Positions 1 to 17,980 of a stretch of DNA of 18,404 bases are shown here, piece after piece; position 1 is the first letter of the stretch; every line of letters begins with the position of its first letter. Source of the stretch: Candidatus Nanohaloarchaea archaeon (GTDB taxonomy: Archaea; Nanohalarchaeota; Nanosalinia; Nanosalinales; Nanosalinaceae); contig JBKHHG010000015.1 of NCBI GenBank assembly GCA_046539225.1, positions 1 to 18,404 of the forward strand. Reading direction: 5' to 3'. The position numbers and the translations under genes were made by a program. Below the pieces are notes generated by a model, which saw nothing but the letters and a program-made list of their open reading frames with translations, had not been told where the DNA came from and did no database searches.

Positions 1-1064
1 AAGTCTACAAGTTTCACTCAGCGGACGGACTTAACTCCAAAAACAGTTTCAGAGACGAAGAACTTCTCCTATCGGACAAAGTAGACGCCGAGGAAGACAG
101 GATACTTGTGGTACAGTCAAACTACGGTTTTCTCGGCATAGTACTCGGGGAACAGGCAGAGAAAACAGTTATGCAGGACACAAGCGCCAGAGCCTGCGAA
201 TACTCAAGAAAAAACGCAGAGGAAAACAGTCTCGAAAACTACAAAGTTTCAAAAACTGCTTTAGAAGATCTAAAAGGAGAATTCGACAAGATAATTTACG
301 CGCCTGCTGGCTACGAAAACGTAGACGTGGTAAAGAACAGACTGGCGGAAGCAGCATTAAAACTCAGAGACAACGGCGAACTCCACATCGCGGGAAGAAA
401 AAAGACAGGCCTGAAAAGATATCGAGACTTCCTGAAACAGTACGGAGAAATAGAAAAAACAGGGAGAGACGGATCAGTAAAAGCCTACAGATTTACAAAA
501 AACGATACGCCGCTGCCGCCTGAAATCACGAAAAACTTCAAAGCAGAAGTAAACGGAGTGGAAGCCGAGTTCGTTACAGAGGAAGGACTTTTCTCGGCCG
601 GAAAACTCGACGACGGAACCAGGCTGCTACTGGAAAACCTGGAAAACGTTTCGGGGAAAGTTCTGGATCTGGCGTGCGGGTACGGCGCAGTCTCCGCGTT
701 CATTGGTAAAAGCTACAGCTGCGACCTGTTTCTGACAGACGATAATGCCCGAGCAACAAAGTACGCCCGGGAGAACTTGGAGCGGAACAATGTGAAGTTT
801 TCGGAGATCAAGACTGCGGACTGCCTCGACGGATTCAAGAACAAGAAATTCGACTACATAGTCTCCAACCCGCCAACCCACGCAGGGAAAACAGTGACCA
901 GCAAAATCTTTACACAGGCCTACAATTCCTTGAAAAAAGGCGGCGAGTTCTGGATAGTCTACAACCAGAACATGAACTACGAGGAGGAGCTGAATCAAAA
1001 GTTCGGTTCGGTTGAAGAGGTTGAAAGAGAAGGAAACTTCAAAGTTGTCAGGGCTGTGAAGTAA
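1..1064 (+). CDS. Class I SAM-dependent methyltransferase, RsmC/RlmG-like (two-domain); 5' end lies outside the window
   Basis: The frame is open from nt 3 (VYKFHSADGLNSKNSFRDEELLL...), upstream of the ORF-track start at 108. The C-terminal half has GLFSAGKLDDGTRLLLE, the SAM motif VLDLACGYG and NPPTHAG. Confidence 0.85.
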   Translation, partial: VYKFHSADGLNSKNSFRDEELLLSDKVDAEEDRILVVQSNYGFLGIVLGEQAEKTVMQDTSARACEYSRKNAEENSLENYKVSKTALEDLKGEFDKIIYAPAGYENVDVVKNRLAEAALKLRDNGELHIAGRKKTGLKRYRDFLKQYGEIEKTGRDGSVKAYRFTKNDTPLPPEITKNFKAEVNGVEAEFVTEEGLFSAGKLDDGTRLLLENLENVSGKVLDLACGYGAVSAFIGKSYSCDLFLTDDNARATKYARENLERNNVKFSEIKTADCLDGFKNKKFDYIVSNPPTHAGKTVTSKIFTQAYNSLKKGGEFWIVYNQNMNYEEELNQKFGSVEEVEREGNFKVVRAVK

Positions 1065-1074
1065 GTCGAAGGCC

Positions 1075-1081
1075 TTTTTAC
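1075..1081 (+). promoter_or_regulatory. Putative TATA box for a leaderless GNAT transcript
   Basis: TTTTTAC ends about 24 nt before ATG 1105, with no SD. It overlaps the end of AGGCCT (1070-1075). Confidence 0.45.
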
Positions 1082-1104
1082 GCTTCAGACCGAAGTAAAG
1101 GATT

Positions 1105-1641
1105 ATGCCGGGACCAGTATTTATTGAGGGCGACAGGATTAATCTGAGGACTGTTGAAAAGGAAGATGCAGGGTTTATGAGGGATGTAAAAAATCTTCCT
1201 GAGATCCGGAATGGTATGGCGATACGTTTCCCTATAAGCCGGGGTCATGAAGAAGAGTTCTATGAGGGTGTGGTGCTTGATAGAGACGACGAGTCGGTAA
1301 GGTTGATGATCACCAGGGAAGAGGAAACCCTGGGCATGATAGAGCTGTCGCCTGACGACATGTACAGCGGAACCGGCTCGATAGTTATATGGCTGAAACC
1401 TGAGGCACAGGGTAAAGGATACGGCACGGAAGCGGCCTCAGAACTGATAGATCACGCATTCTCGGAGCTGAGGTACCACAGACTGACAGCGAAGGCCCTG
1501 GAATCGAACCCTGCTTCACAGAAGGTATGGGAGAAACTTGGGTTCGCCGAGGAAGGAGTAAGAAGGAAAAGCGTATATACACAGGGAGAGTACCAGGATC
1601 TGAAGCTTTATGGCCTTCTCGAAAACGAGTGGGACAGATAG
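1105..1641 (+). CDS. GNAT family N-acetyltransferase (RimJ/RimL-like)
   Basis: Motifs include GDRINLRTVEKED, the acetyl-CoA loop QGKGYGTEA, NPASQKVWEKLGFAEEG and a C-terminal YGLLENEW. Confidence 0.9.
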   Translation: MPGPVFIEGDRINLRTVEKEDAGFMRDVKNLPEIRNGMAIRFPISRGHEEEFYEGVVLDRDDESVRLMITREEETLGMIELSPDDMYSGTGSIVIWLKPEAQGKGYGTEAASELIDHAFSELRYHRLTAKALESNPASQKVWEKLGFAEEGVRRKSVYTQGEYQDLKLYGLLENEWDR

Positions 1642-1668
1642 AAAAGAATTCCTCAACCTGGAGAATAT

Positions 1669-1947
1669 ATGCCGCGCACCGCTGAAAACCTTCCGAAGCA
1701 TGAACTGATAGGCCTCGAAGTAGAGGTGGCAGAGCATAGCGATGAAAACCTTGAAGGCCTGGAAGGCGCTGTAGTCGATGAGACCCGTAACCTGCTTGTT
1801 ATCGACGGGAAGAAGGTTTCGAAGAAAGACGGCGTATTTATCTTTCAACTCGAGGATTCGCGTGTAGAAATCGATGGCGAGTTGATCAACAAGAGGCCGG
1901 AGGACCGGTTGAAGATGAGGATTCCTGAAAAGTTTGAAGGCCTCTGA
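1669..1947 (+). CDS. rnp1: Ribonuclease P protein component 1 (Rpp29/Pop4)
   Basis: Motifs HELIGLEVEV, GLEGAVVDETRNLLVI and IDGELINKRPEDRLK. Canonical position upstream of rps17. Confidence 0.92.
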   Translation: MPRTAENLPKHELIGLEVEVAEHSDENLEGLEGAVVDETRNLLVIDGKKVSKKDGVFIFQLEDSRVEIDGELINKRPEDRLKMRIPEKFEGL

Positions 1948-1952
1948 AGTTT

Positions 1953-1969
1953 GCCGGAGGTTTTCCGGC
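1953..1969 (+). terminator. Hairpin after rnp1 (possible terminator or processing signal)
   Basis: GCCGGA-GGTTT-TCCGGC forms a perfect 6-bp stem 5 nt after the rnp1 stop. Confidence 0.4.
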
Positions 1970-1985
1970 TCAGGCCTATCCACCC

Positions 1986-1993
1986 TTTTAAAG
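1986..1993 (+). promoter_or_regulatory. Putative TATA box of the spc operon
   Basis: TTTTAAAG. The predicted TSS near 2015 coincides with the start of a structured leader. Confidence 0.6.
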
Positions 1994-2014
1994 TTTACTT
2001 TCTGTCTTGTTGTT

Positions 2015-2130
2015 ACACCGTTACGGTGTGTCGCTGGGACTCGACTGAGTTCGATACTCTCAACGGCCTGGAGGAAAACCGCTTGTCGAAGAGCAGGTTT
2101 TTTCGGGTCAGGGTCTCGATTTAGAGGTGA
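2015..2130 (+). ncRNA. Candidate structured 5' leader (r-protein leader-like) of the spc operon
   Basis: Hand-folded. Hairpin 2015-2029; stem 2036-2042/2111-2117 enclosing hairpin 2047-2059 and a long G-U-rich hairpin 2065-2109; then SD GAGGTGA at 2124-2130. Confidence 0.5.
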
Positions 2131-2135
2131 GAAAA

Positions 2136-2420
2136 TTGGCAGAACAGACTGGATACGACATTGAAACCGATGTACCGCTTAGAGGCAACGAGTTTGTAGG
2201 TACAGTTGTAAGCACAAAGATGCAGAAATCCGCTACAGTTAGATGGGGGTATGCAGAGGACGTTCCCAAGTATGAGAGAAAGGAGCGTAGAAATACTAAG
2301 ATTACGTCGCATGTCCCGGATGAACTGGAAGTAGAGGAAGGCGACAGGGTCAGGGTAGTTGAGACCAGGCCTATCTCCAAAACCAAGTCAACGATGATTG
2401 TAGAAGTAATAGAGGAGTAA
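2136..2420 (+). CDS. rps17: 30S ribosomal protein S17 (uS17)
   Basis: Motifs LRGNEFVGTVVSTKMQKSATV, PKYERKERRNTKITSH and ETRPISKTKS. TTG 2136 is preferred over GTG 2127 because SD GAGGTGA at 2124-2130 lies 5 nt upstream of it. Confidence 0.95.
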   Translation: MAEQTGYDIETDVPLRGNEFVGTVVSTKMQKSATVRWGYAEDVPKYERKERRNTKITSHVPDELEVEEGDRVRVVETRPISKTKSTMIVEVIEE

Positions 2421-2424
2421 AACC

Positions 2425-2826
2425 GTGAAACCGCTTGGAGCAAATATTACAAGGACATTGGATATCGGCGCAGAACTTGTATGCGCTGACAACTCCGGTG
2501 CAAAAGAACTCGAGATAATCGGTGTCAAGTCCAGGAAAGGAAGAAGAAGCCGGAGAGAAACCGCAGGAATCGGTGACAAAGTAAAAGTCAAGATTTTAAG
2601 AGGAGATCAAGAGGTAAAACACCAGATCTTTGATGCGGTCATCGTACGCCAGGCCAAGGAGTTCCAGAGGCCTAACGGCATGAGAGTAGAGTTCGAGGAC
2701 AACGCAGCAGTACTCATAGAAGAAGAGACAGGCCTTCCAAAAGGAAACGTTACCAAAGGCCCGATCGCAAAAGAAGTAGTCGAAAGATACAACCCTATCG
2801 GAAAAATCGCTTCACAGGTAGTATAG
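2425..2826 (+). CDS. rpl14: 50S ribosomal protein L14 (uL14)
   Basis: Motifs CADNSGAKEL, AVIVRQAKEFQRPNGMRVEFEDNAAV and PKG..KGPIAKEV. GTG start with GAGGAG upstream. Confidence 0.97.
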   Translation: MKPLGANITRTLDIGAELVCADNSGAKELEIIGVKSRKGRRSRRETAGIGDKVKVKILRGDQEVKHQIFDAVIVRQAKEFQRPNGMRVEFEDNAAVLIEEETGLPKGNVTKGPIAKEVVERYNPIGKIASQVV

Positions 2827-2828
2827 AA

Positions 2829-2882
2829 ATGAATAAAATCAAAGATTTTAAGGTTAACAGAAACTCGGGTGAGTTTCGATAA
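2829..2882 (+). other. 54-nt mini-ORF cassette 1 (MNKIKDFKVNRNSGEFR*), coupled to rpl24 by TAATG
   Basis: ATG 2829 to TAA 2880-2882 overlaps the rpl24 ATG at 2882. Internal GGTGAG SD. 37/54 nt identical to cassette 2. Confidence 0.65.
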
Positions 2883-3622
2883 TGGTACAACGAACAGAGA
2901 ACTGGAGCAGGGAATGGAACTCAAGCACCAACCCATCCAAGCAGCGAAAGTACAGGAAAAACGCTCCAATGCATGTAAAAGACAAGCTGATCTCCGCCAA
3001 CCTCGACCAGACACTTAGAGAAGAACTCGGCACCAGAAACCTTCCTGTAAGGGTAGGAGACAGGGCCAGAGTAATGAGAGGCGACGACAAAGGAGCAGAG
3101 GGAATCATCTCAAAGATCGACAGGACAGACGAAAAAATCTATATTAACGACCTCGACCGGCAGAAAACAGATGGAACAGTAAAAGAAAAGCCTTTGAGGC
3201 CTTCAAACATCCAGCTACAGGCCTTGAACCTTGAAGATCCTGACAGAATCGAGAAGTACGATGTAGAAGACTTTGGAGGAATCGAGGTAGAGCAGGAGGA
3301 GCTTGAAGAGATCGAGAGCGACGAAGACGAGGAAATGATGGAAGAGCTCCAGCAACAGGCCGAGCAGAGAGAAAAGGCCCAGGAAGAGACAGAAGAACCT
3401 GAAGAGGCCTCGGAAGAAGCAGATGAAGAGGAAGAACCCGAGGAAACAGAAGATGAGGATGAGGCCTCAACCGGACAGGCAGATGAAGTTGTCGAAGGCA
3501 CGATCGATGAAGTGAAGGAAGCGGTTGAAGACGGCGCAGACCCTGAAGAACTGCTTGAGGCAGAGAAAGCCGGTAAAGACAGGAAAACCCTGAAGACATG
3601 GTTGGAGAAACAGGTAGAGTAG
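2882..3622 (+). CDS. rpl24: 50S ribosomal protein L24 (uL24) with a long acidic C-terminal extension and small helical domain
   Basis: N-terminal SKQRKYRKNAPMH, KOW region VRVGDRARVMRGDDKGAEG and LRPSNIQL. About 120 extra Glu/Asp-rich residues follow. Confidence 0.93.
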   Translation: MVQRTENWSREWNSSTNPSKQRKYRKNAPMHVKDKLISANLDQTLREELGTRNLPVRVGDRARVMRGDDKGAEGIISKIDRTDEKIYINDLDRQKTDGTVKEKPLRPSNIQLQALNLEDPDRIEKYDVEDFGGIEVEQEELEEIESDEDEEMMEELQQQAEQREKAQEETEEPEEASEEADEEEEPEETEDEDEASTGQADEVVEGTIDEVKEAVEDGADPEELLEAEKAGKDRKTLKTWLEKQVE

Positions 3623-3623
3623 A

Positions 3624-4274
3624 ATGACACACCAGAAAAGACTTTCAGCACCGAAGCATTACCCGGTGGACCGGAAAGGCCTGACCTATACGACGACCGC
3701 TGAAGGAAGCAGGAGCCCGGAAAACGGCATCACGGCAGTTGTCTTCCTCAGAGAGGTCACAGGCTACGCGGACACCAAGAAAGAAGCAAAGAAAATACTT
3801 AGAAAGGGAAAGCTCCTGAGAAACGGCGACGAGGTAAGAAGCGTCAGAGACACCCTGGGAGTGATGGATGTTGTCGAGCTCCCTGACGCAGATGAGACTT
3901 TCCGGGTTCTTCCAAGGCCGGAGAGCATGGAGTTCATGGAGACAGAAGACGACAGGACCGCGGCGAAGATAACAGGAAAAAGAGTTGAAGGCGACGAATT
4001 CGTCTACAGCTTCCACAGCGGCGAGAACTACAGAACCGAGGAAGAGTACTCCACAGGCACCACATTGATCTTCAACGATGAAGTAGAGGCCGCCGAGCTC
4101 GAGAAAGGAAAAGAGGCGGTCATCCTCGATGGAAAGCACGCGGGTAAGATCGCTGAGATAGAAGAGATTCATGGTAGAGGCATGAGGCCTGACACTGCGA
4201 CAGTCAAAACCGATGAAGAGTTCGAGATCCGGCAGGACAAACTCTTCTCGATTGGAGGCCTTGAGGTGAATTAG
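3624..4274 (+). CDS. rps4e: 30S ribosomal protein S4e (eS4)
   Basis: Motifs HQKRLSAPKHYPV, LREVTGYADTKKEAKKIL and GKHAGKIAEIEEI. Position between rpl24 and rpl5. Confidence 0.95.
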   Translation: MTHQKRLSAPKHYPVDRKGLTYTTTAEGSRSPENGITAVVFLREVTGYADTKKEAKKILRKGKLLRNGDEVRSVRDTLGVMDVVELPDADETFRVLPRPESMEFMETEDDRTAAKITGKRVEGDEFVYSFHSGENYRTEEEYSTGTTLIFNDEVEAAELEKGKEAVILDGKHAGKIAEIEEIHGRGMRPDTATVKTDEEFEIRQDKLFSIGGLEVN

Positions 4275-4784
4275 ATGAACGAGATGAAACAGATACAGAT
4301 AGGGAAAGTGGTTGTCAACGTCGGCATCGGACAGGTAGGAGAAGACGTTGAAAAGGCCAAGAACCTTATAGAAAAAATCACGGGAAAGACCGCGGTAAAG
4401 ACAGAGTCCCGCGAAGCCTCCAAAACCTTTGGAAACCGTGAAGGCCTCAAGATCGGTGCGATGACAACGCTCAGAGGAGAAGAAGCCATGGAGTTCCTCG
4501 AAAAAGTCTTTACAGCGGTAGAAGAAGTCGAGGCCTCACAGTTCGATGATGCCGGCAACTTCGGCTTCGGTATCGGAGAGTACATCGATGTCTCAGGAAT
4601 CGACTACGACGCCGACATCGGTATGATGGGCTTCGAAGTATCTGTAAACCTTGAAAGGCCTGGCTACAGGATAAAAAGAAGAGATTACAGGCCTTCGGAT
4701 ATCGGAGACGAGCATATAGTGAATAGGGAGGATGCCATAGAGTTTGTCGAGCAGGAGTTCGATGTAGAGGTGAAGGACAAGTGA
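4275..4784 (+). CDS. rpl5: 50S ribosomal protein L5 (uL5)
   Basis: Motifs [40 protein letters not shown] and [11 protein letters not shown]. Confidence 0.97.
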
Positions 4785-5005
4785 GTTACGAAAAAGTACT
4801 TGAGCAGATCAGGCACAAGAAAGGCAAGAAGGAGAAGTTCGAGAAGAACAACGCCCCAAAAGGCAGGGATTACGGAAAATCCAAGAAAGAATGCAGAAGA
4901 TGCGGTAGAACAGGTAGAGGAGTAATCTCGAAGTACGACCTGAACTTCTGCCGTCAGTGCTTCAGAGAAGTCGCGGAAGACCTCGGCTTCGAACAGTTAA
5001 AATAG
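4781..5005 (+). CDS. rps14: 30S ribosomal protein S14 (uS14, zinc-binding type)
   Basis: CRRCG...[24 protein letters not shown] overlap with the rpl5 stop and GAGGTGA upstream. Confidence 0.93.
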
Positions 5006-5014
5006 GTGGTTTAG

Positions 5015-5068
5015 ATGAATAAAATCGTAGATTCAATGGATTTCAGGCTTGAAGGTGAGTTCCGGTAA
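5015..5068 (+). other. 54-nt mini-ORF cassette 2 (MNKIVDSMDFRLEGEFR*), coupled to rps8 by TAATG
   Basis: AGGTGG SD at 5004-5009 precedes ATG 5015. TAA 5066-5068 overlaps the rps8 ATG. Internal GGTGAG. Confidence 0.65.
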
Positions 5069-5454
5069 TGCAACAGGATACACTGAGCGACGCCTTGAGC
5101 TCGATCAACAACGCAGCAAGAAACGAGAAAGAACACGCAGTCATCGAGCCGACAAGCGACCTGATCCAGAACGTGCTTATCCAGCTGCAGCAGAAAGGCT
5201 ATATAGGAGTCTTCGAGCTTGTAGAGGACGGGAAAGGAGGCAAGTTCAAGGTCGAAGTAACGGATATCAACGAATGCCGGCCGGTAAAACCTAACTTCTC
5301 CGTGCAGCGAGACGAGTTCGAGAAATGGGCGAAAAGATACCTGCCCGCAAGAAACTTTGGAGACCTGCTCGTCACCACCTCACACGGCATCATGACCCAT
5401 AGAGAGGCCCGGGAAGAAGGAGTAGGAGGAAAACTCCTGGGATACATCTACTGA
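5068..5454 (+). CDS. rps8: 30S ribosomal protein S8 (uS8)
   Basis: Motifs DTLSDALSSINNA, GYIGVFELVEDGKGGKFKV, RYLPARNFG and TTSHGIMTHREAREEGVGGKLLGYIY. Confidence 0.97.
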   Translation: MQQDTLSDALSSINNAARNEKEHAVIEPTSDLIQNVLIQLQQKGYIGVFELVEDGKGGKFKVEVTDINECRPVKPNFSVQRDEFEKWAKRYLPARNFGDLLVTTSHGIMTHREAREEGVGGKLLGYIY

Positions 5455-5464
5455 GGCGATAAAA

Positions 5465-5995
5465 ATGGAAGAGATCAAGCTACCTGAAGGATTCGAAGCA
5501 GAATACGAGGACGGAGTCCTGAGAGTCAGCGACGGCGACAACGAACTTGAAAAGAAGATGGACAACGCCCTCGTCGAAGTAGAGGTATCCGGAGACAGAG
5601 TAGAGTTCAGGCCTCTGAGAGACAAGAGAGACGTGAAAAGTATTGCAGGAGCCTACAGAGGACACACGGAAAACATGATTCAAGGCCTCAAAGAGGAGTA
5701 CGTCTACAAGATGAAAGGGGTCTACGCCCACTTCCCGATGACCATAAAGAAACAGGGAGAAGAGGTACATATCGAAAACTTTATGGGCGAACGCGAGCCC
5801 AGGAGAGCAGATATAATGGAAGGAGTAAATGTAGAGGTAAACGGCGAAGACCTTGAAATTTCGGGATCCGACAAGGAAAAGGTCAGCCAGACCGCTGCCC
5901 GGATCGAACAGATCTGCGGCAAAGGCAACAGAGACCCGAGAACCTTCCAGGACGGCGTATACATTACAGAGAAAAACGGAGGTGCGGCAGAATGA
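5465..5995 (+). CDS. rpl6: 50S ribosomal protein L6 (uL6)
   Basis: Motifs HTENMIQG, YAHFPM, IENFMGEREPR, KEKVSQTAARIEQ and RDPRTFQDGVYI. Confidence 0.97.
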   Translation: MEEIKLPEGFEAEYEDGVLRVSDGDNELEKKMDNALVEVEVSGDRVEFRPLRDKRDVKSIAGAYRGHTENMIQGLKEEYVYKMKGVYAHFPMTIKKQGEEVHIENFMGEREPRRADIMEGVNVEVNGEDLEISGSDKEKVSQTAARIEQICGKGNRDPRTFQDGVYITEKNGGAAE

Positions 5996-6315
5996 GACAG
6001 AACACACACAAGAACAAGAGAATCAATACTTCATGGAGAAAGCCGCAGGGCAAACACAGCGACCAGAGACTCAAAAAGAAGAACACCCCGGCAATGCCCC
6101 AGGCAGGCCTGAGAACACCGAAAGACGAGAGAGGCCTCCATCCTTCAGGTTACGAAGACGTACTGGTTCACAGGCCTGAAGACTTAGAGGATTTGAACTC
6201 TGAGGAAGAAGCGGCAAGAATCGGGTCAACAGTAGGAGGAAAAAAGAGAGAGATGATACTTGAAAAAGCTGAGGAACTCGATCTAAAAGTACTGAACCCG
6301 GGTGAAGAAGAATGA
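5992..6315 (+). CDS. rpl32e: 50S ribosomal protein L32e (eL32), short form
   Basis: Motifs SWRKPQGKHS, RTPKDERGLHPSGYEDVLVH, RIGSTVGGKKREMI and LKVLNP. ATGA overlap with rpl6. Confidence 0.95.
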   Translation: MRQNTHKNKRINTSWRKPQGKHSDQRLKKKNTPAMPQAGLRTPKDERGLHPSGYEDVLVHRPEDLEDLNSEEEAARIGSTVGGKKREMILEKAEELDLKVLNPGEEE

Positions 6316-6755
6316 GCGACTTGAAGAACCAGAAGAGAATGGCGGCAGAGATCATGGACATAGGAGAGAACCGTGTAAAGATCGATCCTGAGATGCAGGA
6401 AAAAGTCAGCGAAGCCATAACGAGGAAAGACATCAGGAACCTGATCGAGGGCGGAGCAATCACAAAGAAGGATGTCAAAGGCACAAGCAAGGCCCGCGCC
6501 AAGAAAAACAAGAAGCAGAAAGCCAAAGGCCTGCGAAAAGGACAGGGTTCAAGAAGCGGAAGCAAGAACGCAAGAAAAAGCTCCAAAGAGAAATGGATGG
6601 AGAAGATCAGAGCTATAAGAACCCGGTTGAAAGAGATGAAAGAAGAAGGCGAAGTCTCCAGCGACGAGTACAGAAAGCTTTACGACATGAGCAAGGGAGG
6701 CTTTTTCAGAGATGTAAAACACCTTGAAAACCACGTTGAAAACAAACTCGAGTGA
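6312..6755 (+). CDS. rpl19e: 50S ribosomal protein L19e (eL19)
   Basis: Motifs LKNQKRMAAEI, AITRKDIRNLI, GQGSRSGSKNAR, WMEKIRAIR and YRKLYDMSKGGFF. Confidence 0.97.
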   Translation: MSDLKNQKRMAAEIMDIGENRVKIDPEMQEKVSEAITRKDIRNLIEGGAITKKDVKGTSKARAKKNKKQKAKGLRKGQGSRSGSKNARKSSKEKWMEKIRAIRTRLKEMKEEGEVSSDEYRKLYDMSKGGFFRDVKHLENHVENKLE

Positions 6756-6764
6756 TTTTTTGAG

Positions 6765-7274
6765 ATGGCAGACAACACAAACTTCAAAGTACCGCATAGA
6801 AGACGGAGAGAGCAGAAAACAGATTACGAACAGAGACTGAAGCTTCTCAAATCCGACCATCCGAGAGCAGTGGTCAGGACAAGCAACAAACATACCAAGA
6901 TGCACCTATCCTTCTACAAAGAAGAAGGAGACGAAAACAGATGCTTTACATCAACAGAGGAGCTTGAAAACTTCGGCTGGAGCCATAACACAGGCAACCT
7001 TCCATCAGCATATCTTGCAGGATTCCTGATGGGGTCAAAGGCTGAAGAAGACAAGGCAATCCTCGACATAGGCCTACAGGAGAAGAAAAGCGGCGGCCGA
7101 GTATTTGCCGCGGTAAAAGGAATGATAGACGCAGGCCTTGAAATCCCTGCAGGAGAAGAGGCCTTCCCGGAAGAGGAAAGGATTAGCGGCGAACATATAG
7201 AGCAGATACGGGACGTTGAAATATCTGAAGAGCTTGAAGAAGTCAAGGAAGAAATCAGAGGTGAATTTGAATAA
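6765..7274 (+). CDS. rpl18: 50S ribosomal protein L18 (uL18)
   Basis: Motifs RRRREQKTDYEQRLKLL, GNLPSAYLAG, AILDIGL and RVFAAVKGMIDAGLEIP. Confidence 0.96.
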   Translation: MADNTNFKVPHRRRREQKTDYEQRLKLLKSDHPRAVVRTSNKHTKMHLSFYKEEGDENRCFTSTEELENFGWSHNTGNLPSAYLAGFLMGSKAEEDKAILDIGLQEKKSGGRVFAAVKGMIDAGLEIPAGEEAFPEEERISGEHIEQIRDVEISEELEEVKEEIRGEFE

Positions 7275-7327
7275 TGCGAAATTCAAAGAGTTTATGTTTA
7301 CAAAGGATAGGCCGAGGTGATCTCTAA
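7274..7327 (+). other. 54-nt mini-ORF cassette 3 (MRNSKSLCLQRIGRGDL*), TAATG-coupled to both rpl18 and rps5
   Basis: The rpl18 TAA overlaps ATG 7274, and TAA 7325-7327 overlaps the rps5 ATG. Internal GAGGTGA. Nt 7279-7300 match 2835-2856 at 18/22 positions. Confidence 0.6.
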
Positions 7328-7998
7328 TGGCAGAGCAGGAAGAGGAAGGAGATATCTGGAAGCCGAAGACCAAGCTTGGGAAGAAAGTTGCAAACGGTGA
7401 GATAAACGATATAGTTGAAGCCCTGGACTATGAGAGGCCTATCATGGAGCCCGAGATAGTCGACCATCTTGTCGATCTCGATGAAGAAGTTATCCTGATC
7501 GGTGGAACCCCGGGTAAGGGAGGCGGCATGAGGAGAACTGTTTCAAAGAGAACGGCGAGAATGCACAAGTCAGGAGCACGTTACTCCTCGAACGCCATGA
7601 CCGTGCTTGGAGACAGGAACCGTGTTATAGGCCTTGGAGTAGGAGAATCCGAGGATACAAGGGCCGCAATCGAAGACGCTAACAGGGAGGCCAAGCTCAA
7701 CCTGATCAAAGTACCTAAAGGAAACGGCTCCTGGGAGGACACGGGAGAAGACGAATCCTCGATTCCTTTCGCGGTAGAAGGAAAGTCCGGAAGCGTAACG
7801 GTAGAGCTTAAACCGGCTCCGCGTGGAACAGGCCTTGCATGCAGCGACGAGGTCAAGAAAGTTATGGAGCTCGCAGGCATCGAAAATATCTGGGTTCAGA
7901 CCCGTGGAACCACTCAGACCCGTGAAAACCTTACACGTGCAACGTTCCAGGCCCTTGAAAAGCTCAGCGAGATGAAGACCCGGGGTGAAGAAGAATGA
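7327..7998 (+). CDS. rps5: 30S ribosomal protein S5 (uS5)
   Basis: Motifs WKPKTKLGKKV, EPEIVD, GKSGSVTVELKPAPRGTGL, LAGIENIWVQTRG and NLTRATFQAL. Confidence 0.97.
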   Translation: MAEQEEEGDIWKPKTKLGKKVANGEINDIVEALDYERPIMEPEIVDHLVDLDEEVILIGGTPGKGGGMRRTVSKRTARMHKSGARYSSNAMTVLGDRNRVIGLGVGESEDTRAAIEDANREAKLNLIKVPKGNGSWEDTGEDESSIPFAVEGKSGSVTVELKPAPRGTGLACSDEVKKVMELAGIENIWVQTRGTTQTRENLTRATFQALEKLSEMKTRGEEE

Positions 7999-8339
7999 TT
8001 GCAGCAGTAAAGGTCAGGGGAAGCGTCGACGCGCCTCACACCATTGAGGACACGATGCAGAACCTGGGCCTCGAGAACAGGAACCAGATAGTTTTCTACG
8101 AGGAAAACGACTCTATCAAAGGAATGATGAACAAGGCAAAGGACTTCATAACTTACGGAGAAGTTTCCGACGATATAATCGAAGAAGTCGAGGAAAGATA
8201 CGAGGAAGTTGAGTCAGGTACAGTTATCGACGCAAGGCCTCCGTCAAAAGGCTTTAGAAACACTAAGAAAGGAGTAAACCAGTCGGGAAGCCTTGGTAAA
8301 CGCGATTCAATCGACAGCTTGCTTAAGAGGATGATCTAA
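7995..8339 (+). CDS. rpl30: 50S ribosomal protein L30 (uL30), short form
   Basis: Motifs MIAAVKVRG, IEDTMQNLGL, GMMNKAKDFITYGE, PPSKGF and IDSLLKRMI. Position between rps5 and rpl15. Confidence 0.93.
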   Translation: MIAAVKVRGSVDAPHTIEDTMQNLGLENRNQIVFYEENDSIKGMMNKAKDFITYGEVSDDIIEEVEERYEEVESGTVIDARPPSKGFRNTKKGVNQSGSLGKRDSIDSLLKRMI

Positions 8340-8762
8340 ATGACCAAGAGAAGATCCAAGAAGAAAAAGTCCGGTTCTCACGGATACGGAAGCAGCAAGA
8401 AAAACCGTGGAGCAGGCAACCGTGGAGGACGAGGAAACGCAGGCTCCGGTAAGAAAGGCCAGTCCAAAAGACTGACCAAGGAAGGAGTACAGGAGCTCGG
8501 CGAGAAAGGATTCACATCCCGGCAGCCAGATCAGAACGGTATAAACCTTAGAGATATAGACGACAGGATCGAAACACTGAGCGAGAAAGGCCTTGTCGAA
8601 GATGACGGAGATGTTCTCGTGCTTGATGTTACAGAGTTCGGATATGACAAGGTGCTTGGCACCGGTCATTTAAACAGGGAGATCGAAATTCATGCTGAAA
8701 GCTTTTCATCCTCTGCCGAGAGAAAGATTGAAGAAGCAGGTGGAGAAGCAGTAGAGAAGTAA
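8340..8762 (+). CDS. rpl15: 50S ribosomal protein L15 (uL15)
   Basis: Motifs SHGYGSSKKNRGAGNRGGRGNAG, GYDKVLGTG and FSSSAERKIEEAGGE. Confidence 0.96.
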   Translation: MTKRRSKKKKSGSHGYGSSKKNRGAGNRGGRGNAGSGKKGQSKRLTKEGVQELGEKGFTSRQPDQNGINLRDIDDRIETLSEKGLVEDDGDVLVLDVTEFGYDKVLGTGHLNREIEIHAESFSSSAERKIEEAGGEAVEK

Positions 8763-8780
8763 AGGCCTGAGGTATCAAGA

Positions 8781-10172
8781 ATGTCAAAGCTTGTCCAGAT
8801 AGCACAGTACGTTCCCACGGTTGAGAAACCTGAGAAGGAACAGGCACTTAAACAGATGCTGACATGGACAGGCCTCGTAATTCTACTTTACTTTACCTTG
8901 AGCGAGATACCTATCTACGCCGCTGACGCCACACAGGTCGAACAGGCGATCCAGCAGCTGAGAACCTTTCAGACCTTGCTCGGTTCCGAGATAGGAACGA
9001 TAATAACCCTGGGTATCGGACCTATCGTAACCGCCTCGATTGTGCTGCAGATGATGGTAGGATCCGAACTTCTGCCATGGAACACCGATACACAGGAAGG
9101 AAAGCAGAAGTTTCAGGCCGCCCAGAAACTGCTCGCCTACTCTCTCACAGTCATTCAAGCTGTGGGTTTTACGCTTTCAGGCACGTTTGGCTCGGTCGCA
9201 GGAGACCCCATGCTTTTCACCCTGATAACAGGCCAGATTACACTGGGCGGATGGCTAATAATACTGCTGGACGACCTCGTCCAGAAATGGGGCTTCGGCT
9301 CCGGAGTAGGCCTGTTCATTGCGGCAGGAGTCTCAAAAGGAATATTCATACAGCTTTTCTCACCGCTGACAGACACAGGATCCTTCTTCTGGGTCAGCGG
9401 CGGAGACCCTCAGGGAGCTTTATTCACCTTTATAAACACGCTTGCGCCTGAAGCCGCTTTGACAGTGGTCTCAACTGTAGCAGTATTTGCCTTTGTGGTC
9501 TACCTACAGTCAATGAAAGTCGAGATACCGTTGACTTTCGGAAACGTCAGAGGATTCGGCCAGAAATGGCCTCTAAAGTTCTTCTACACCAGTGTTATGC
9601 CTGTCATCTTTGTATCGGCTTTAATCGCAAATATTCAGATAGTGGGGACGCTTGCAGCCGGACAGAACGGCTCAGTCCCTATACTCGGAAGCTTCAGCCA
9701 GGGACAGGCACAGTCAGGTCTCGCACTCCTCGTTAACCCGCCTACACAGGTCATAACCTCCTTGATCTCGGGAGGATTCGGATCCATCACTGCTTTCCAG
9801 ATATTCCACGTATTCTTCTACGTCACGATATACACTGTTGGAGCAGCCATATTCTCGATTTTCTGGGCCAAAACCACTGGCCAGGACAGTGATGCGGTCG
9901 CAGATCAGATCCAGCAGACCGGGATGAAAGTACCAGGATTCAGGAAGGACAGACGCGTCATCAAGAAAGTCCTTGACCGTTACATCCCACCGCTGATCGT
10001 CGTCGCGGGAGCAGCCGTAGGATTCATCGCCGCGGCCGCAGACCTTATCCAAGCCGCAGGCGGCGGAATGGGAATTCTGCTTACAGTGATGATCCTCTAC
10101 AGACTCTACGAACAGCTCGCCCAGAAACACATGGAAGAACTCCACCCCGCGATGAAAGACTTCCTCCAATGA
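8781..10172 (+). CDS. secY: Preprotein translocase subunit SecY (Sec61 alpha)
   Basis: About 10 TM segments. Motifs LGIGPIVTASIVLQ, KWGFGSGVGLFIAAG, PLKFFYTSVMPVI, PGFRK, LDRYIP and GGMGILLTV. Confidence 0.98.
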   Translation: MSKLVQIAQYVPTVEKPEKEQALKQMLTWTGLVILLYFTLSEIPIYAADATQVEQAIQQLRTFQTLLGSEIGTIITLGIGPIVTASIVLQMMVGSELLPWNTDTQEGKQKFQAAQKLLAYSLTVIQAVGFTLSGTFGSVAGDPMLFTLITGQITLGGWLIILLDDLVQKWGFGSGVGLFIAAGVSKGIFIQLFSPLTDTGSFFWVSGGDPQGALFTFINTLAPEAALTVVSTVAVFAFVVYLQSMKVEIPLTFGNVRGFGQKWPLKFFYTSVMPVIFVSALIANIQIVGTLAAGQNGSVPILGSFSQGQAQSGLALLVNPPTQVITSLISGGFGSITAFQIFHVFFYVTIYTVGAAIFSIFWAKTTGQDSDAVADQIQQTGMKVPGFRKDRRVIKKVLDRYIPPLIVVAGAAVGFIAAAADLIQAAGGGMGILLTVMILYRLYEQLAQKHMEELHPAMKDFLQ

Positions 10173-10423: not shown

Positions 10424-10769
10424 TCAGTCCCGGATAGCCAGTGCAAATATCTCTATCGGATACTTTCTGAAGTTGCTGACCCGGAAGATCAGCCAGACCG
10501 CGCTTCTCGACGTCCCGGTCCAGAACGCGGTAGTGGAGAAAAGCAGGTAGAGGTTGCCACCAGCATGCCGCTCAACATTGAAAGAGCCGCGTATACCAGC
10601 GTGAAGAGGCCTGGAGTTAGGCCTATCTGGAACGCTGCGTAGAAAATCAGTGCGATATTGGCGATAACCTTGGGAACGTTGTTGTGGACTTCCCCGCGCC
10701 GTTCGCACCGATATAACCGATCATCTCACCCTCCTCGATCTCCAGGTTCAGATCATCGGCCTCAATCAA
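10424..10769 (-). pseudogene. Collapsed ABC-2 transporter remnant: ATPase N-terminus joined to a frameshifted DUF990-like permease fragment
   Basis: 10769-10647 encodes LIEADDLNLEIEEGEMIGYIGANGAGKSTT (Walker A). A second frame gives NVPKVIANIALIFYAAFQIGLTPGLFTLVYAALSMLSGMLV. After a frameshift comes LYLLFSTTAFWTGTSRSAVWLIFRVSNFRKYPIEIFALAIRD*. Confidence 0.75.
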
Positions 10770-12116: not shown

Positions 12117-12170
12117 TTTATAGGATAGAAGGTTAGGCCTCCTGGAACTGGTTTAAAGAACGAGGCCTAA
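12117..12170. promoter_or_regulatory. Divergent promoter region csp / Nudix-like gene
   Basis: Minus-strand TATAAA at 12122-12117. Plus-strand TTTAAAG at 12152-12158 is bracketed by the 9-bp inverted repeat TTAGGCCTC (12133-12141) / GAGGCCTAA (12162-12170). Confidence 0.5.
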
Positions 12171-12548: not shown

Positions 12549-12585
12549 GGCAAGGCCTTAAACCTGTGGAAACAAAACTTTAACT

Positions 12586-13212: not shown

Positions 13213-13237
13213 TTTTTTCTCGTTCTTCTTTTTTCTT
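13213..13237 (+). terminator. U-rich archaeal-type terminator
   Basis: TTTTTTCTCGTTCTTCTTTTTTCTT directly after the stop codon. Confidence 0.5.
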
Positions 13238-13272
13238 CAGGTGTTAAAACTTTTCAGTTCGAACTCGGTTCT

Positions 13273-13560
13273 ATGGATCTTTCAAGACAGGAACGTGAAA
13301 ACCTGCATAAATGGGGTAAGGCCCGGAGAATTATCGATGAGGAGAAGATCTCAGTGGAGCTGAGGTCAAGCGACCGTTACCAGTTCGAGGTTGAGGGAGA
13401 CAGCGAGGCCTATACTGTAGGGATAGACATCGACACAGGCGAATCTTTCTGTCCCTGTCCTTTCCGCGGCGAGACGTGTTCCCATCAGATCGCGGCCCAT
13501 CTCTACCTTGCAGGGATCGGCGTGGAGAACGAGGATTACAGGCCTCCAGATCAGGGTTAG
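13273..13560 (+). CDS. SWIM zinc-finger protein
   Basis: FEVEGDSEAYTV...FCPCPFRGETCSHQIAA fits CxC-xn-CxH. TATA-like TTAAAAC at 13244-13250. Confidence 0.85.
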   Translation: MDLSRQERENLHKWGKARRIIDEEKISVELRSSDRYQFEVEGDSEAYTVGIDIDTGESFCPCPFRGETCSHQIAAHLYLAGIGVENEDYRPPDQG

Positions 13561-13595
13561 AATATAAAACCGTGGAGGAAGAATCTCTACTTTAT

Positions 13596-14276: not shown

Positions 14277-14314
14277 GGGAAAACATTTTATCCTGTTAAA
14301 GTCCAAAACATTCT

Positions 14315-14992
14315 ATGAACTTGATTGAGGCCTCCGGTATCTCCAAGAAGTATGCTGGTTTTGAGCTGAAGAAAGTCGATCTTGAGGTGGAGAGCGGAGA
14401 GATAGTCGGGGTTCTCGGGCCAAATGGCGCAGGCAAATCTACTTTGATAGAGATACTTACAGGGCAGACCGAGAGGGATTCAGGCGAACTTCAGGTTTTA
14501 GGCCTCGACCCGAAGAAAAGTCCTGTGGGGCTGCGGAAGAGGATAGGTGTTCTACCTGAGCGAGAAGATCCTCCAAGCTTTCTGACAGGCAAGGAGTACC
14601 TCAACTTTGTATCCGATGTCAGGTCAGAGGCGATGGACTGGAGCTTGCCTGAACGCCTGAATCTCAGTGACCATCTCCTGTCGCAGCAGACCCGGCAGCT
14701 CTCAAAAGGAGAGAGACAGAAACTTATGGTAGTACAGGCCTTCTTCCACGAACCGGAGCTGGTTTTCATCGATGAACCGTTAATCAACCTCGACCCGTTA
14801 ATACAGGAAGAGGTAAAGGATGTCTTCCGGGAACACAGGGATAGAGGCGGTTCAATGGTGCTTTCAACCCATCTGGTATCTCTGGCGGAAGAGCTCTGTG
14901 ACCGGGTGCTGTTCCTTAAAGACGGTGAGGTAGTCGAAGAAGTCGATCCCGCCGACTTAAAGCAGAAATTCATCGATTCAGAGGAAGAGTAA
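14315..14992 (+). CDS. ABC transporter ATP-binding protein (ABC-2/drug-exporter type)
   Basis: Walker A GPNGAGKST, signature LSKGERQKL, Walker B LVFIDEP and H-loop LSTH. Confidence 0.95.
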   Translation: MNLIEASGISKKYAGFELKKVDLEVESGEIVGVLGPNGAGKSTLIEILTGQTERDSGELQVLGLDPKKSPVGLRKRIGVLPEREDPPSFLTGKEYLNFVSDVRSEAMDWSLPERLNLSDHLLSQQTRQLSKGERQKLMVVQAFFHEPELVFIDEPLINLDPLIQEEVKDVFREHRDRGGSMVLSTHLVSLAEELCDRVLFLKDGEVVEEVDPADLKQKFIDSEEE

Positions 14993-14994
14993 AG

Positions 14995-16128
14995 ATGATC
15001 CTCAAAAGAATGGTGAAAGAGGAGTGGAGAACCCAGTCCAAGCTTTATAAAGGCAGGAATCTTGCTTTACTGCCGGCTCTCGTATTTCTAATAACTTTTA
15101 TAGGTGCATTAGGAGTTGAAAAATTTTCAACAGCTCCTGTAGAAGATATAGGCCTTTTGATCACGGCGTTCGGGTTTTTCACAGGCCTCGCAGCGGGATC
15201 AATCGGTTTTTCAGGCAGCGACGCGGCCAAAAACGTCTTGGGCGACGCAAACTTCCTTGTCTTCAGCTCGAGAACTTTACCGGTCAGGAAAACCCGTTTA
15301 ATCACGTGTTTTCTGTTGAAAGACCTGCTGTTCTACACAGGCCTTTACCTGGTGCCTGTGGCGGCGGCCGCAGTTCTTGTATCGCCTGGACTCAAGATTT
15401 ACGCCTTTTACATGTCCCTACTCTTTGTTTCAGGCCTTGCTTTAAGCCTCGTGGCGGCCAACACTGCTGTAGGGATTCCTTCGCGGCTTAAACTCTTGAA
15501 CTATGGTAATATTCCGGCTCCGCCGGTCGCCCGTAAATCGGTTCTCGATGTTTCCCGGAGTAGCGGAGGCCTCTTCAAAATTCTGATGTCAATAGGTGTT
15601 TTGCTTGGACTGTATTACTACATCGTGAACTATGTTCCGATCGCGTCCTACCTGCTTTCCAACCCGCTGATGTCGTTTTCAGTGGTTTTAGGTATGATGT
15701 CTGTATCCATCTACAACTGGCTCAACACTTACGACACCGGACAAGATTACCTCTATTTACCTCTCCAGAAGGAAAAGCTGCTGAAATCAAAGTTCAAGGC
15801 CTTCAAAGCAATTTCAGCCGCTTTGATAGTTCCAACACTTACTTTATCTTACCTGGTGTACGGCGGTAACCTCTTGCTTTCTATCGCGACTGGATACATA
15901 ACCGCTTACTACATAGGAGCTATAACAATGCATGAAGCAGGCCTCAATCCCAACGAGGAGATGATAAACGCTGTAACGTTTACAAAGTTCCTGCTGCTGG
16001 TAAACGTTCTTGTCGTGCCGCTTCTCGCCCTTACATCTCTTGACCTGGATCCGGTCTATACTTTAGGTCTTCTTGTGCCGATGGCGGTGATAGCAAAGAT
16101 CATAGAAAAAAGACCTGTAAAGTTGTGA
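14995..16128 (+). CDS. ABC transporter permease (multi-pass membrane protein)
   Basis: About 10-11 hydrophobic segments, 2 nt after the ATPase. LPVRKTRL and YLYLPLQKEKLL are ABC-2-type loops in the two halves. Confidence 0.8.
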   Translation: MILKRMVKEEWRTQSKLYKGRNLALLPALVFLITFIGALGVEKFSTAPVEDIGLLITAFGFFTGLAAGSIGFSGSDAAKNVLGDANFLVFSSRTLPVRKTRLITCFLLKDLLFYTGLYLVPVAAAAVLVSPGLKIYAFYMSLLFVSGLALSLVAANTAVGIPSRLKLLNYGNIPAPPVARKSVLDVSRSSGGLFKILMSIGVLLGLYYYIVNYVPIASYLLSNPLMSFSVVLGMMSVSIYNWLNTYDTGQDYLYLPLQKEKLLKSKFKAFKAISAALIVPTLTLSYLVYGGNLLLSIATGYITAYYIGAITMHEAGLNPNEEMINAVTFTKFLLLVNVLVVPLLALTSLDLDPVYTLGLLVPMAVIAKIIEKRPVKL

Positions 16129-16160
16129 GTGGATAGTTATCAATTTTTAGCTGTTTTCTT

Positions 16161-16374
16161 GTGTATAGATGGAATAAAAAAATAGTATCTTTACCGAAGT
16201 CAGAGTCTCTAAAAGAAGCATTTGAAAAATACAGTAAAGGGCATTACAGGCCTCACAGCAGCCCGGGGAGAACAGAGAAAAGGAGTGCTCGACTACGTCT
16301 CAGAAGAGGATCTACATCAGTTCGACTCGGTTGAAGGATTCGAGGCCCTGGAGAAATCAGCGCTTGCGACTTAA
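16161..16374 (+). pseudogene. Probable frameshifted gene remnant (weak PIN/VapC C-terminus resemblance)
   Basis: Two protein-like frames overlap: ...SLPKSESLKEAFEKY and TVKGITGLTAARGEQRKGVLDYVSEEDLHQFDSVEGFEALEKSALAT*. ATG 16169 is followed at once by GAA TAA. Confidence 0.3.
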
Positions 16375-16439
16375 AAACTCGGAATTTCAAGGTTCTTCGG
16401 TACAATAATGGGTTTAAACCCTGAGTTGGAACAGTAGTT

Positions 16440-16691
16440 ATGGAGAATCTGTACCTGGTGATAGGCGTTCTGCTGCTTTTCTCCGGTATTGTAGGCTACG
16501 GATATACAGCCTCGGAAATGGAAGAATGTGGCTCAATTCTTGGAGAGCTGGATCAGTCCTTGGATGAGGATTCACAGCAGTACTGCAATAACATAGGATT
16601 AGCTAATTCAGCTTCCATAGGAGCTGCGGCAGTAGGCCTTATACTCTCAGCTGTAGGCCTTGTATCCCTGGCCCGTTTGAGAGAGAATTAA
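16440..16691 (+). CDS. Small two-TM membrane protein with a Cys pair in the loop
   Basis: TM1 LYLVIGVLLLFSGIVGYGY, acidic loop with two Cys, TM2 IGAAAVGLILSAVGLVSLA. TATA TTTAAAC at 16413-16419. Confidence 0.75.
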   Translation: MENLYLVIGVLLLFSGIVGYGYTASEMEECGSILGELDQSLDEDSQQYCNNIGLANSASIGAAAVGLILSAVGLVSLARLREN

Positions 16692-16699
16692 AAATTATC

Positions 16700-17329
16700 C
16701 TATCTCAATACGCCGCGTAGGGTCAGCTCGGCCACATTTTCCGAGAAACCCTTGAAAGAATGGTCTGCGCCCTCCACAGTTTCCATATTACAGTTAGGCA
16801 AGGCATCACAGATCCTCCTCGAGTTCTCAACACTCACTACCTCATCCCGGGTTCCATGAATAATCAATGTGGCCATATCAATACTTTCCAAGTATTCCTC
16901 ATCGACCGAGATATCTGTAGCCTCTGAGGCCTTCCCAAGCCTTTCAGATCTCCACTTATCCACGTTATACTCTCCAAATCCGATAGCTGGCGCCCAGAGA
17001 ACCATGAAATCCAACTGATCATTTCCGGGCCAGGTCAGGCCTAACTGCCCGCCAAAACTCTTTCCAAGAAGGCCTACAGACTCACATCCATTACTCTTCA
17101 ACAACTCAAAGGCCTCATACAGCCTGGCGTGAAGCATCTTTAGATTCATCCCCTCCAGGTCTTCGGCACCTTCCCAGGCATCGACACGCACAACACCGAA
17201 TTCACCTCTCACATCCTCGACAACCTCATCGAAAGGACTGCCGAAAGGCCCGCTGCTGATACCAGGGACCACTACCAGGCCTTGACTCGAACCGCTCTCA
17301 CTTTCTAAGATTAGATTATTCTTCGTCAT
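16700..17329 (-). CDS. Alpha/beta-fold hydrolase (serine hydrolase)
   Basis: Nucleophile elbow GKSFGG, acid in IIHGTRDEVV and His in EGADHSF. Confidence 0.9.
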   Translation of the reverse strand: MTKNNLILESESGSSQGLVVVPGISSGPFGSPFDEVVEDVRGEFGVVRVDAWEGAEDLEGMNLKMLHARLYEAFELLKSNGCESVGLLGKSFGGQLGLTWPGNDQLDFMVLWAPAIGFGEYNVDKWRSERLGKASEATDISVDEEYLESIDMATLIIHGTRDEVVSVENSRRICDALPNCNMETVEGADHSFKGFSENVAELTLRGVLR

Positions 17330-17335
17330 TATTTT

Positions 17336-17980
17336 TTAGGATAGTGCTTGAATTACGGCTTGCCATCCTTGATCTTCCTTTATTGGTTTTAGTATATTGT
17401 AGCCCTTAATGTAGGAGTCTGGATATTTGCTTATTTGAGTTTGTTCGCCTAGTTCCTCTTCTAAAAGAAGGGAGAAGCCTTCAATTTTAGGAAGGTTCTG
17501 ATTATATTTTTTTAGAATATCTTCTCTAAGGCCTCTGTATCCCTCTAAAAGTTCTTTATTTACTAAATAATATTTTTCATAATCATCTTCTATATCTAGG
17601 AAGGTTATATCATTATAATCTACTTCTAAGCTGTTTTCTACATTGCCGGGCAGTGTGAGTATTTCTTCTGTAAATTCCTCATTGAACAATCTTGACTCTA
17701 GACTATTTAACTCAGAATCGATCTGTCTTATCCTACGTCCATTTTCAGTGTTTTCAAAGTATGCGCCATGACCTGCTTCATGGATATAGTTATTTTTTAT
17801 TTCCCTTTCACTTTCGACATTTTTTATGAACCCCTCTAAATCTCGAGGTATGAATACTGCATCAGGATCTGTTATAAGAGATGTTTGAAGTTCATCTGTT
17901 ACAAAGAAATTGCTTTTTTCAACTGGCAGATCTATGTATTTAAGATGGTCTAAAACCTCTGGCGCTCTATATTTGTTCAT
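17336..17980 (-). CDS. Hypothetical protein with an HExxH zinc-metallopeptidase-like motif
   Basis: NNYIHEAGHGAYFE plus a downstream candidate third ligand in KIEGFS. ATG 17980 overlaps the upstream ORF. AT-rich. Confidence 0.6.
   Translation of the reverse strand: MNKYRAPEVLDHLKYIDLPVEKSNFFVTDELQTSLITDPDAVFIPRDLEGFIKNVESEREIKNNYIHEAGHGAYFENTENGRRIRQIDSELNSLESRLFNEEFTEEILTLPGNVENSLEVDYNDITFLDIEDDYEKYYLVNKELLEGYRGLREDILKKYNQNLPKIEGFSLLLEEELGEQTQISKYPDSYIKGYNILKPIKEDQGWQAVIQALS

Follow-up and report, generated by a model that had tools for sequence, protein, structure and literature searches.

A palindromic hexamer that fills some nanohaloarchaeal genomes is a candidate Chi-like site of an AddAB-type repair enzyme

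Why some genomes become filled with one short palindrome has been an open question since the highly iterated palindrome HIP1, and the DNA analysed here raises it in an archaeon. The window, that is the whole stretch of 18,404 nucleotides of contig JBKHHG010000015.1 (assembly GCA_046539225.1, Candidatus Nanohaloarchaea archaeon), belongs to a draft genome of 606,781 bases in 38 contigs (G000) and carries the hexamer AGGCCT at short intervals. The excess of this hexamer is real, strong and lineage-restricted. Among 70 genomes of the phylum, AGGCCT was abundant only in those with an intact AddAB-type helicase-nuclease and no detected Mre11, and it is therefore likely to be the stop signal of that enzyme.

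AGGCCT is over-represented in the window and throughout the genome

AGGCCT is the commonest hexamer of the window, with 83 copies from position 407 to 17529-17534, or one per ~220 bp. Base composition predicts 4.0 copies, giving a ~21-fold excess; the original prediction, based on a hand count of about 82 copies against about 4.5 expected (roughly 18-fold), was close to these values. Within called genes the word was read as Arg-Pro (13 copies), as xAG GCC Txx (19) and as xxA GGC CTx (41), and 10 copies lay outside called genes, so that the three reading contexts and the spacer copies claimed earlier were all recovered, as were six intergenic positions named in advance (1070, 1972, 8763, 12135, 12163 and 12553). 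These frame and intergenic assignments rest on gene calls made with a custom script. Among the 101 peptide contexts of the window compatible with AGGCCT, 73 held it. The features of the window are as follows:

407 to 17534, no strand: 83 dispersed AGGCCT, the window's part of a genome-wide word
1070 to 1075, no strand: intergenic copy between class I methyltransferase and GNAT-type genes (names from translations)
1972 to 1977, no strand: intergenic copy in the gap between the RNase P p29 gene (family assigned via the orthologue in genome G058) and the ribosomal-protein operon
2127 to 10172, plus strand: ribosomal-protein (spc-type) operon to secY, conserved genes with AGGCCT in all three frames
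8763 to 8768, no strand: intergenic copy in the 18-bp gap ahead of secY
10607 to 10624, no strand: close pair of copies (12 bp apart), not in a called gene
12135 to 12168, no strand: two intergenic copies, at 12135 and 12163
12553 to 12558, no strand: intergenic copy

The excess was not confined to the window. The genome contained 2,850 AGGCCT (4.7 per kb), and every one of its 38 contigs had the word at 1.7-5.8 per kb. Observed/expected ratios were 20.2, 16.4, 5.9 and 2.4 under Markov models of orders 0, 1, 2 and 3, and AGGCCT ranked first among the 4,096 hexamers at each of these orders; the order-4 ratio of 1.11 is uninformative because the 5-mers consist of AGGCCT itself. GGCC occurred 4,549 times, 2,850 of them inside AGGCCT, and the order-2 ratio rose to 13.9 once AGGCCT was masked from the training set. 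Coding copies numbered 447, 928 and 1,175 by frame, compared with 85, 178 and 186 in synonymous-codon shuffles (maxima of 101, 205 and 209 in 20 shuffles), and the spacers held 286 copies where 8.4 were expected. The excess thus survived Markov, GGCC-aware and codon-preserving nulls, the codon-shuffled null lying 5-6-fold below the observed coding counts. Codon, dipeptide or GGCC bias was ruled out as the cause, in agreement with the earlier argument that codon or amino-acid bias would not suffice.

AGGCCT richness is patchily distributed within the phylum

We surveyed 70 genomes of the phylum, with genome sizes rounded for densities. Twelve held 2.0-4.7 AGGCCT per kb (rich), one (G023) was intermediate at ~0.95, and 57 had 0.7 or less (poor). 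Rich titled loci included L175, L186 and L193. On a ribosomal-protein tree of loci, from which four distant outgroups and four loci with fewer than five genes were left out, rich loci fell into four groups with at least four state changes, and their union in one group was rejected (approximately unbiased test, p 7.5e-5). Within genus g18, the rich G056 and G058 and the poor G057 and G060 formed sister groups on a SecY tree. No other iterated word replaced AGGCCT in the poor loci examined. Among the 80 viral loci listed with flanks, dispersed AGGCCT reached at most 1.5 per kb, and none matched these proteomes.

Between rich relatives the sites were conserved: across 10 rich-rich pairs, 0.39-0.67 of first-locus AGGCCT sites were retained, compared with 0.00-0.48 for control words, and AGGCCT was kept more than control words in each pair, amino-acid constraint being included in both. 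The intermediate, decaying locus L167 retained 6 of the 30 sites of its rich sister L168. At the strain level, one of 40 listed differences (71 further exist) hit an AGGCCT site, with ~1 expected (contigs, one study), numbers too small to be informative. One polymorphic site lies in the window at 3197-3202, where the window and the contigs of runs X1 and X2 have different bases at 3199.

Richness coincides with an intact AddAB-type gene pair and no detected Mre11

The proteomes of G000, of the rich G058 and of the poor G065 (minus its last 16.5 kb) were compared. Next to herA, G065 carried a pair of genes, named mre11 and rad50 after their Pfam domains, that was missing from the other two. Across the survey, 35 of 70 genomes had a detectable Mre11, and the 13 rich or intermediate ones were not among them. 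It was also missing from 22 poor genomes, and its absence is therefore not sufficient for AGGCCT richness. Whole genera (g1, g12 and g14-g18) and several single-contig genomes had no detectable Mre11, and most of the 35 Mre11-less genomes carried an AddAB-type pair instead. In G000 this pair lies outside the window, on contig C2:

G000:C2:28886-31393: addB-like gene, 835 amino acids, overlapping addA
G000:C2:31390-34077: addA gene, 895 amino acids, encoding a UvrD helicase with a C-terminal RecB-family nuclease

An addB-like gene was present in 39 of 70 genomes and AddA in 37; all 13 rich or intermediate genomes had both, with AddA at full length. Of the 70 genomes, 17 had full-length AddA without detected Mre11, and these included all 13 rich or intermediate ones. 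The other 53, none of them rich, comprised 8 in which the best AddA copy ended before the nuclease, 35 in which it was absent or partial and 10 with full AddA together with Mre11. In the eight poor Mre11-less genomes with shortened AddA, the best copy ended at 758-777 amino acids. Within g18, both addA and addB were detected in the two rich genomes, G056 and G058, whereas the poor G055, G057, G059 and G060 (77-89% complete) yielded neither gene and no Mre11. Metagenome loci gave the same picture: all six rich loci with complete AddA kept the nuclease (887-905 amino acids), and AddA ended at 758-777 amino acids in the poor L453, L443 and L450/451/452, which the AddB tree places on three different branches (3 changes); in L436, L445 and L455 AddA was cut by contig ends. 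About three AddA truncations and one loss of the whole pair were counted, all in poor lineages.

AddA has UvrD and PD-(D/E)XK domains with invariant nuclease residues, and it scores beneath every NCBIfam AddA cut-off. The predicted structure of the AddB-like protein (predicted local distance difference test score 88) had B. subtilis AddB as its best Foldseek match (E 7e-12), with VIA Z values of 16.0 for AdnA and 14.6 for AddB and a further match to RecC, the fold match spanning the whole chain. This model indicates that the protein is an inactive helicase fold joined to a nuclease, similar to AddB or AdnA. It has no Walker A motif, and its only two cysteines mean that it lacks a four-cysteine iron-sulphur cluster; we therefore use the term AddAB-type rather than B. 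subtilis-type. Residues 20-52 carried deletions in 5 of 8 poor and 0 of 8 rich sequences covering them, and by fold position this stretch is likely to be the motif Ia/Ib region that reads Chi. Profile searches against PDB sequences returned nothing significant and gave no residue-level mapping to B. subtilis D41, Q42, T44 or R70. RadA-family genes were present in 5 of 5 genomes checked. In G023 and G024 addB is split over contig ends, and G023 holds a second, divergent and shorter addB-like match (G023:C5:4346-5542, 35%).

AGGCCT fills most tolerant positions and reshapes proteins

Compatible peptide contexts were filled with AGGCCT in 75-85% of cases in G000 and 71-84% in G058, compared with 7-11% in the poor G065, and the odds of filling over a codon-usage null were 28-55. 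The contexts themselves, RP, [EQK]A[FLSYCW] and xGL, were 1.6-2.2 times as frequent as in residue shuffles in G000 and G058, compared with 0.8-1.06 in G065. Aligned orthologues had 1,558 compatible contexts in G058 and 1,040 in G065, and the context differences were often K/R, I/L or D/E. These sequence comparisons indicate that AGGCCT has altered protein sequences. Filling was alike in conserved and lineage-specific genes (0.71-0.76). Structural RNA was spared, 0 of 11 and 1 of 31 transfer RNA genes holding the word, and two G058 gaps that read as ribosomal RNA had 3 AGGCCT in 5.2 kb. Low-GC, island-like stretches were sparse in AGGCCT, including a restriction-modification island of G058. Two such low-GC, AGGCCT-poor regions (G058:C1:670000-690000 and 1030000-1046000) hold type I restriction, GmrSD and glycosylation genes.

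Neighbouring opportunities were co-filled at 0.23-0.40 of expectation at 6-11 bp, 0.44-0.84 at 12-25 bp and 0.93-1.05 beyond 30 bp, indicating that sites closer than ~25 bp exclude one another; pairs such as that at 10607 in the window are rarer than expected genome-wide. Control inverted pairs gave 0.66-1.19 at 6-25 bp, and hairpin avoidance accounts for little of the exclusion zone. No periodicity in spacing was detected at periods of 5-200 bp.

The original prediction had proposed testing whether one-off variants are depleted. After masking of AGGCCT they were not depleted in G000 (0.98-1.17 overall, 0.98-1.13 for inner variants). The one clearly enriched variant was AGGCCC/GGGCCT (2.1-fold in G000, 4.5-fold in G058 and 0.94 in the poor G065), and GGGCCC was not enriched.

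A Chi-like role would account for filling and decay

We lean modestly towards the view that AGGCCT is a palindromic Chi-like site that keeps the AddA nuclease from destroying broken ends and is propagated through a bias in repair. The AddAB-type enzyme would take over DNA-end resection in the nanohaloarchaeal group without detected Mre11. AddA would unwind from the break, its nuclease destroying the 3' strand until AddB reads AGGCCT, and this reading would spare the 3' strand for RadA. When one of two copies undergoing mutual repair has AGGCCT at a site and the other does not, the first would tend to halt resection and survive, and the second would be resected beyond the site and restored from the first. 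A small bias could then fill nearly every AGGCCT-tolerant position, and a palindrome would gain from breaks on both sides. At equilibrium such a bias would act like selection, raising AGGCCT without draining its one-off neighbours, as in our data; odds near 40 would require a scaled bias of only ~3.7 (ln 40). Drive and selection favouring repair close to each break would leave identical patterns. AGGCCC could be a weaker, one-direction site; leakage of the abundant AGGCCT explains its enrichment equally well. The bias would end, and AGGCCT would decay, in lineages that lose either the AddA nuclease or both genes, or that resect with Mre11-Rad50, a stop signal no longer being needed once the nuclease has gone. 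Alternatively, recognition could have disappeared before the nuclease, which, left unchecked, was then deleted; the poor locus L448 would fit this order.

In B. subtilis, motifs Ia/Ib of the inactive AddB helicase domain bind Chi, and the AddA nuclease is thereby kept off the 3' strand (PMC3321194). The domain lost in poor lineages is thus the one against which Chi protects in B. subtilis AddAB, which counts for a Chi-like role. The mutual exclusion of neighbouring sites also counts for it, clustered chi sites being reported as possibly not read independently (PMC5443536). A bolder version, to which we give slightly less than an even chance, is that AGGCCT is the first archaeal Chi, a palindromic stop for an AddAB-type enzyme that replaces Mre11-Rad50, and that biased break repair alone filled about three quarters of the possible positions at the cost of amino-acid changes.

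Several observations weigh against such a role. Four genomes (G037, G061, G002 and G007) have the profile of rich ones yet are AGGCCT-poor, in the poor Mre11-less G036, G048 and G051 a second AddA copy extends into the nuclease, and strict counting with second copies changes 13 of 17 to 13 of 20. AddA is intact in the poor locus L448, every haloarchaeal-type homologue was located in AGGCCT-poor DNA, and no alternative word was found in poor genomes keeping AddAB. Independent events are few: related genomes do not count separately, and the loss of Mre11 may be a single event. On the AddB tree, 2 pairs were usable for an independent-pairs test, too few to reach significance (1 in the same direction, 0 opposite, 1 without difference), and absence calls rest partly on incomplete genomes. 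Diagnostic AddB columns did not exceed the number obtained with shuffled splits of the lineages (rank 36 of 252); AddB K624, perfect as a marker in 9 versus 9 sequences, was rejected when it was found in 9 of 12 rich and also in 6 poor genomes. AdnA fits the AddB model at least as well as AddB does, and the AdnA complex has no known Chi. AGGCCC showed no clear replichore bias (1.32 versus 1.23), and polarity is undefined for the palindrome AGGCCT. Palindromic sites are more often those of dimeric proteins that read double-stranded DNA. The Chi sites described so far lack palindromic symmetry, are strand-polarised and occur far more sparsely, at one per 5 kb in E. coli (PMC8022716).

Other possible readers of AGGCCT

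Among the mechanisms listed in the original prediction, a gene-conversion drive is the one we favour, acting via the AddAB-type enzyme; methylation was not supported, none of the four methyltransferase families searched being common to the single-contig rich genomes, and neither uptake nor chromosome organisation found support. The alternative that survives best, which we consider unlikely, is that another protein, such as a dimeric binder or nickase shielding or marking self DNA, reads AGGCCT in double-stranded DNA, addAB being merely co-gained and co-lost with it or dependent on it. A dimer footprint would fit the palindrome, the tolerance confined to outer base pairs and the 25-bp exclusion zone, the poor genomes with intact AddAB would be explained, and in the three-proteome comparison many G058 proteins absent from G065 belonged to no Pfam family. 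However, no third gene travels with the addAB pair, the candidates tested across genomes failed, and why poor lineages repeatedly lost precisely the AddA nuclease would need an explanation of its own.

Among the rejected candidates, a SWIM-type gene of the window (13273-13560) was missing from rich g17 and present in poor g18, Nre occurred in 60 of 70 genomes, and an HhH-GPD glycosylase had no G000 orthologue. The small SWIM-type protein (our own reading) has 61-78% identity in 19 other family members with a patchy distribution, and its gene lies within ~3 kb of addAB in G058, G026 and L437/L438/L446. As an alternative word, ACCGGT was 2-3-fold enriched in G065 and unrelated to addB over the 70 genomes; the enrichment of AACCGGT/ACCGGT in G065 extends to all frames.

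A repair ratchet directed by methylation, as for HIP1, in which an orphan methyltransferase marks AGGCCT and repair converts near-matches, we regard as improbable. Deviations were enriched at outer bases as in HIP1, and each cyanobacterial HIP genome described in PMC4390886 has a matching methyltransferase. An orphan AGGCCT/GGCC enzyme, which the original prediction had suggested seeking, did not emerge from four families (PF00145, PF01555, PF02086 and PF02384), none of which was common to the single-contig rich genomes G039, G052, G053 and G058. A single one of 12 rich genomes had PF00145, and it was not among these four; PF01555 exceeded its cut-off in G052 alone of the four, with weak partial matches in G000, G039, G053 and G058 (that of G000 reads as a transfer RNA methyltransferase), PF02086 exceeded its cut-off in 0 of 5 genomes, and strong PF02384 matches were limited to G052 and G058. 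A Pfam scan of 247 of the 277 soluble G058 proteins without a G065 homologue detected no Vsr, no Vsr-directed family search being made. The undepleted inner variants also speak against this ratchet.

DNA uptake sequences of Neisseria and Pasteurellaceae are genome-wide, accumulate by molecular bias and alter proteins; they differ from AGGCCT in being longer and non-palindromic, and they act at the cell surface via receptors of which no counterpart was identified here. That AGGCCT is an uptake or self-recognition signal biasing entry and recombination is likewise hard to credit. The word is lineage-specific, reshapes proteins and is sparse in island-like regions, and a transfer role was proposed for HIP1 (PMC13756078). 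Against this, the benefit per site was unsaturated beyond ~30 bp, where uptake of fragments should saturate over hundreds of bases, and no uptake gene was seen tracking AGGCCT, a phylum-wide search of uptake families not having been made.

Least probable of all is a chromosome-organising site, for histones for example: the exclusion distance is near the archaeal histone-dimer footprint (~30 bp) and the main histones show unusual similarity among rich genomes, but spacing was aperiodic over 5-200 bp and no residue split rich from poor once poor sisters were added. The main histone, which ranked rich genomes first, was thus rejected for want of a diagnostic residue. It is 92% identical between the distant rich G000 and G058 and 82-85% identical to that of G065; G000 has at least three histone paralogues (G000:C17:5222-5419, C3:20808-20987 and C4:14054-14233).

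Comparison with Chi, HIPs and AddAB

By analogy, AGGCCT likely works like Chi. It shares with the Chi sites of AddAB and RecBCD (AGCGG in B. subtilis, GCTGGTGG in E. coli; PMC3321194, PMC5443536, PMC8022716) the character of a short G-rich over-represented word that is abundant in core DNA and sparser in island-like DNA. All 13 rich or intermediate genomes also encode, as Chi genomes do, a helicase-nuclease of two subunits, the second of which combines an inactive helicase with a nuclease. Unlike Chi, AGGCCT is palindromic, archaeal, near-saturating, ~20 times denser than E. coli Chi and alters proteins, and its recognition by the enzyme is a prediction. The pair resembles B. subtilis AddAB and mycobacterial AdnAB in joining an SF1A helicase-nuclease to an adjacent-encoded helicase-fold-nuclease subunit, and differs in being shorter (895 + 835 amino acids). 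Archaeal UvrD-pfam12705 fusions have been noted in mesophilic archaea, linked to no DNA word in the available text (PMC5704561).

The likeness to HIPs put forward in the original prediction also held. With cyanobacterial HIP1 (GCGATCGC) and alternate HIPs (PMC4390886, PMC5861425, PMC13756078) AGGCCT shares hyper-abundance as a genome-wide, frame-independent palindrome, conservation between relatives, deviations at outer bases and a patchy distribution among kin. The alternate HIP of Synechococcus PCC 6312, CAGGCCTG (observed/expected 14.7), contains the AGGCCT hexamer (PMC5861425). Unlike HIP1, AGGCCT is archaeal, 6 bp long, present at 2-4.7 per kb, without a shared methyltransferase found, and tracks a resection enzyme; it has the HIP pattern but not the methyltransferase feature.

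In the literature searched (subscription papers mostly outside, supplements uncovered) we found no report of AGGCCT in archaea or of an archaeal Chi. The word is absent from the available main text of two papers on nanohaloarchaeal methylomes, an archaeal restriction-modification survey and a virus preprint (PMC11001535, PMC10266531, PMC10609329, 10.1101/2025.02.15.638363), and a 2026 preprint states that no Chi-controlled recombination is known in archaea (10.64898/2026.05.08.723854). If AGGCCT is a Chi-like site, Chi-controlled recombination would extend to archaea and a highly iterated palindrome would for the first time have an identified cause. Methylation would then not be needed for a repair enzyme to reshape the genome and proteome of its own cell. 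This would be a clean example of a molecular drive whose strength shows in the 1.6-2.2-fold enrichment of certain peptides, and a reduced symbiont without Mre11-Rad50 would have a possible route for break repair. The on/off switch among close relatives coincides with one enzyme domain, so the question can be reduced to an assay with two proteins and one substrate. AGGCCT also distinguishes native from acquired DNA in these genomes.

Additional observations

G065 carries a uvrC-uvrA-uvrB-like cluster (G065:C1:399406-406023; our own reading), the uvrB- and uvrC-like genes of which are unmatched in G000 and G058. CTAG is strongly avoided in G000 (133 sites, observed/expected 0.06-0.14) and not in its rich relatives (0.7-1.4), and the same avoidance is seen in a few high-GC loci (L171, L178, L180 and L198).

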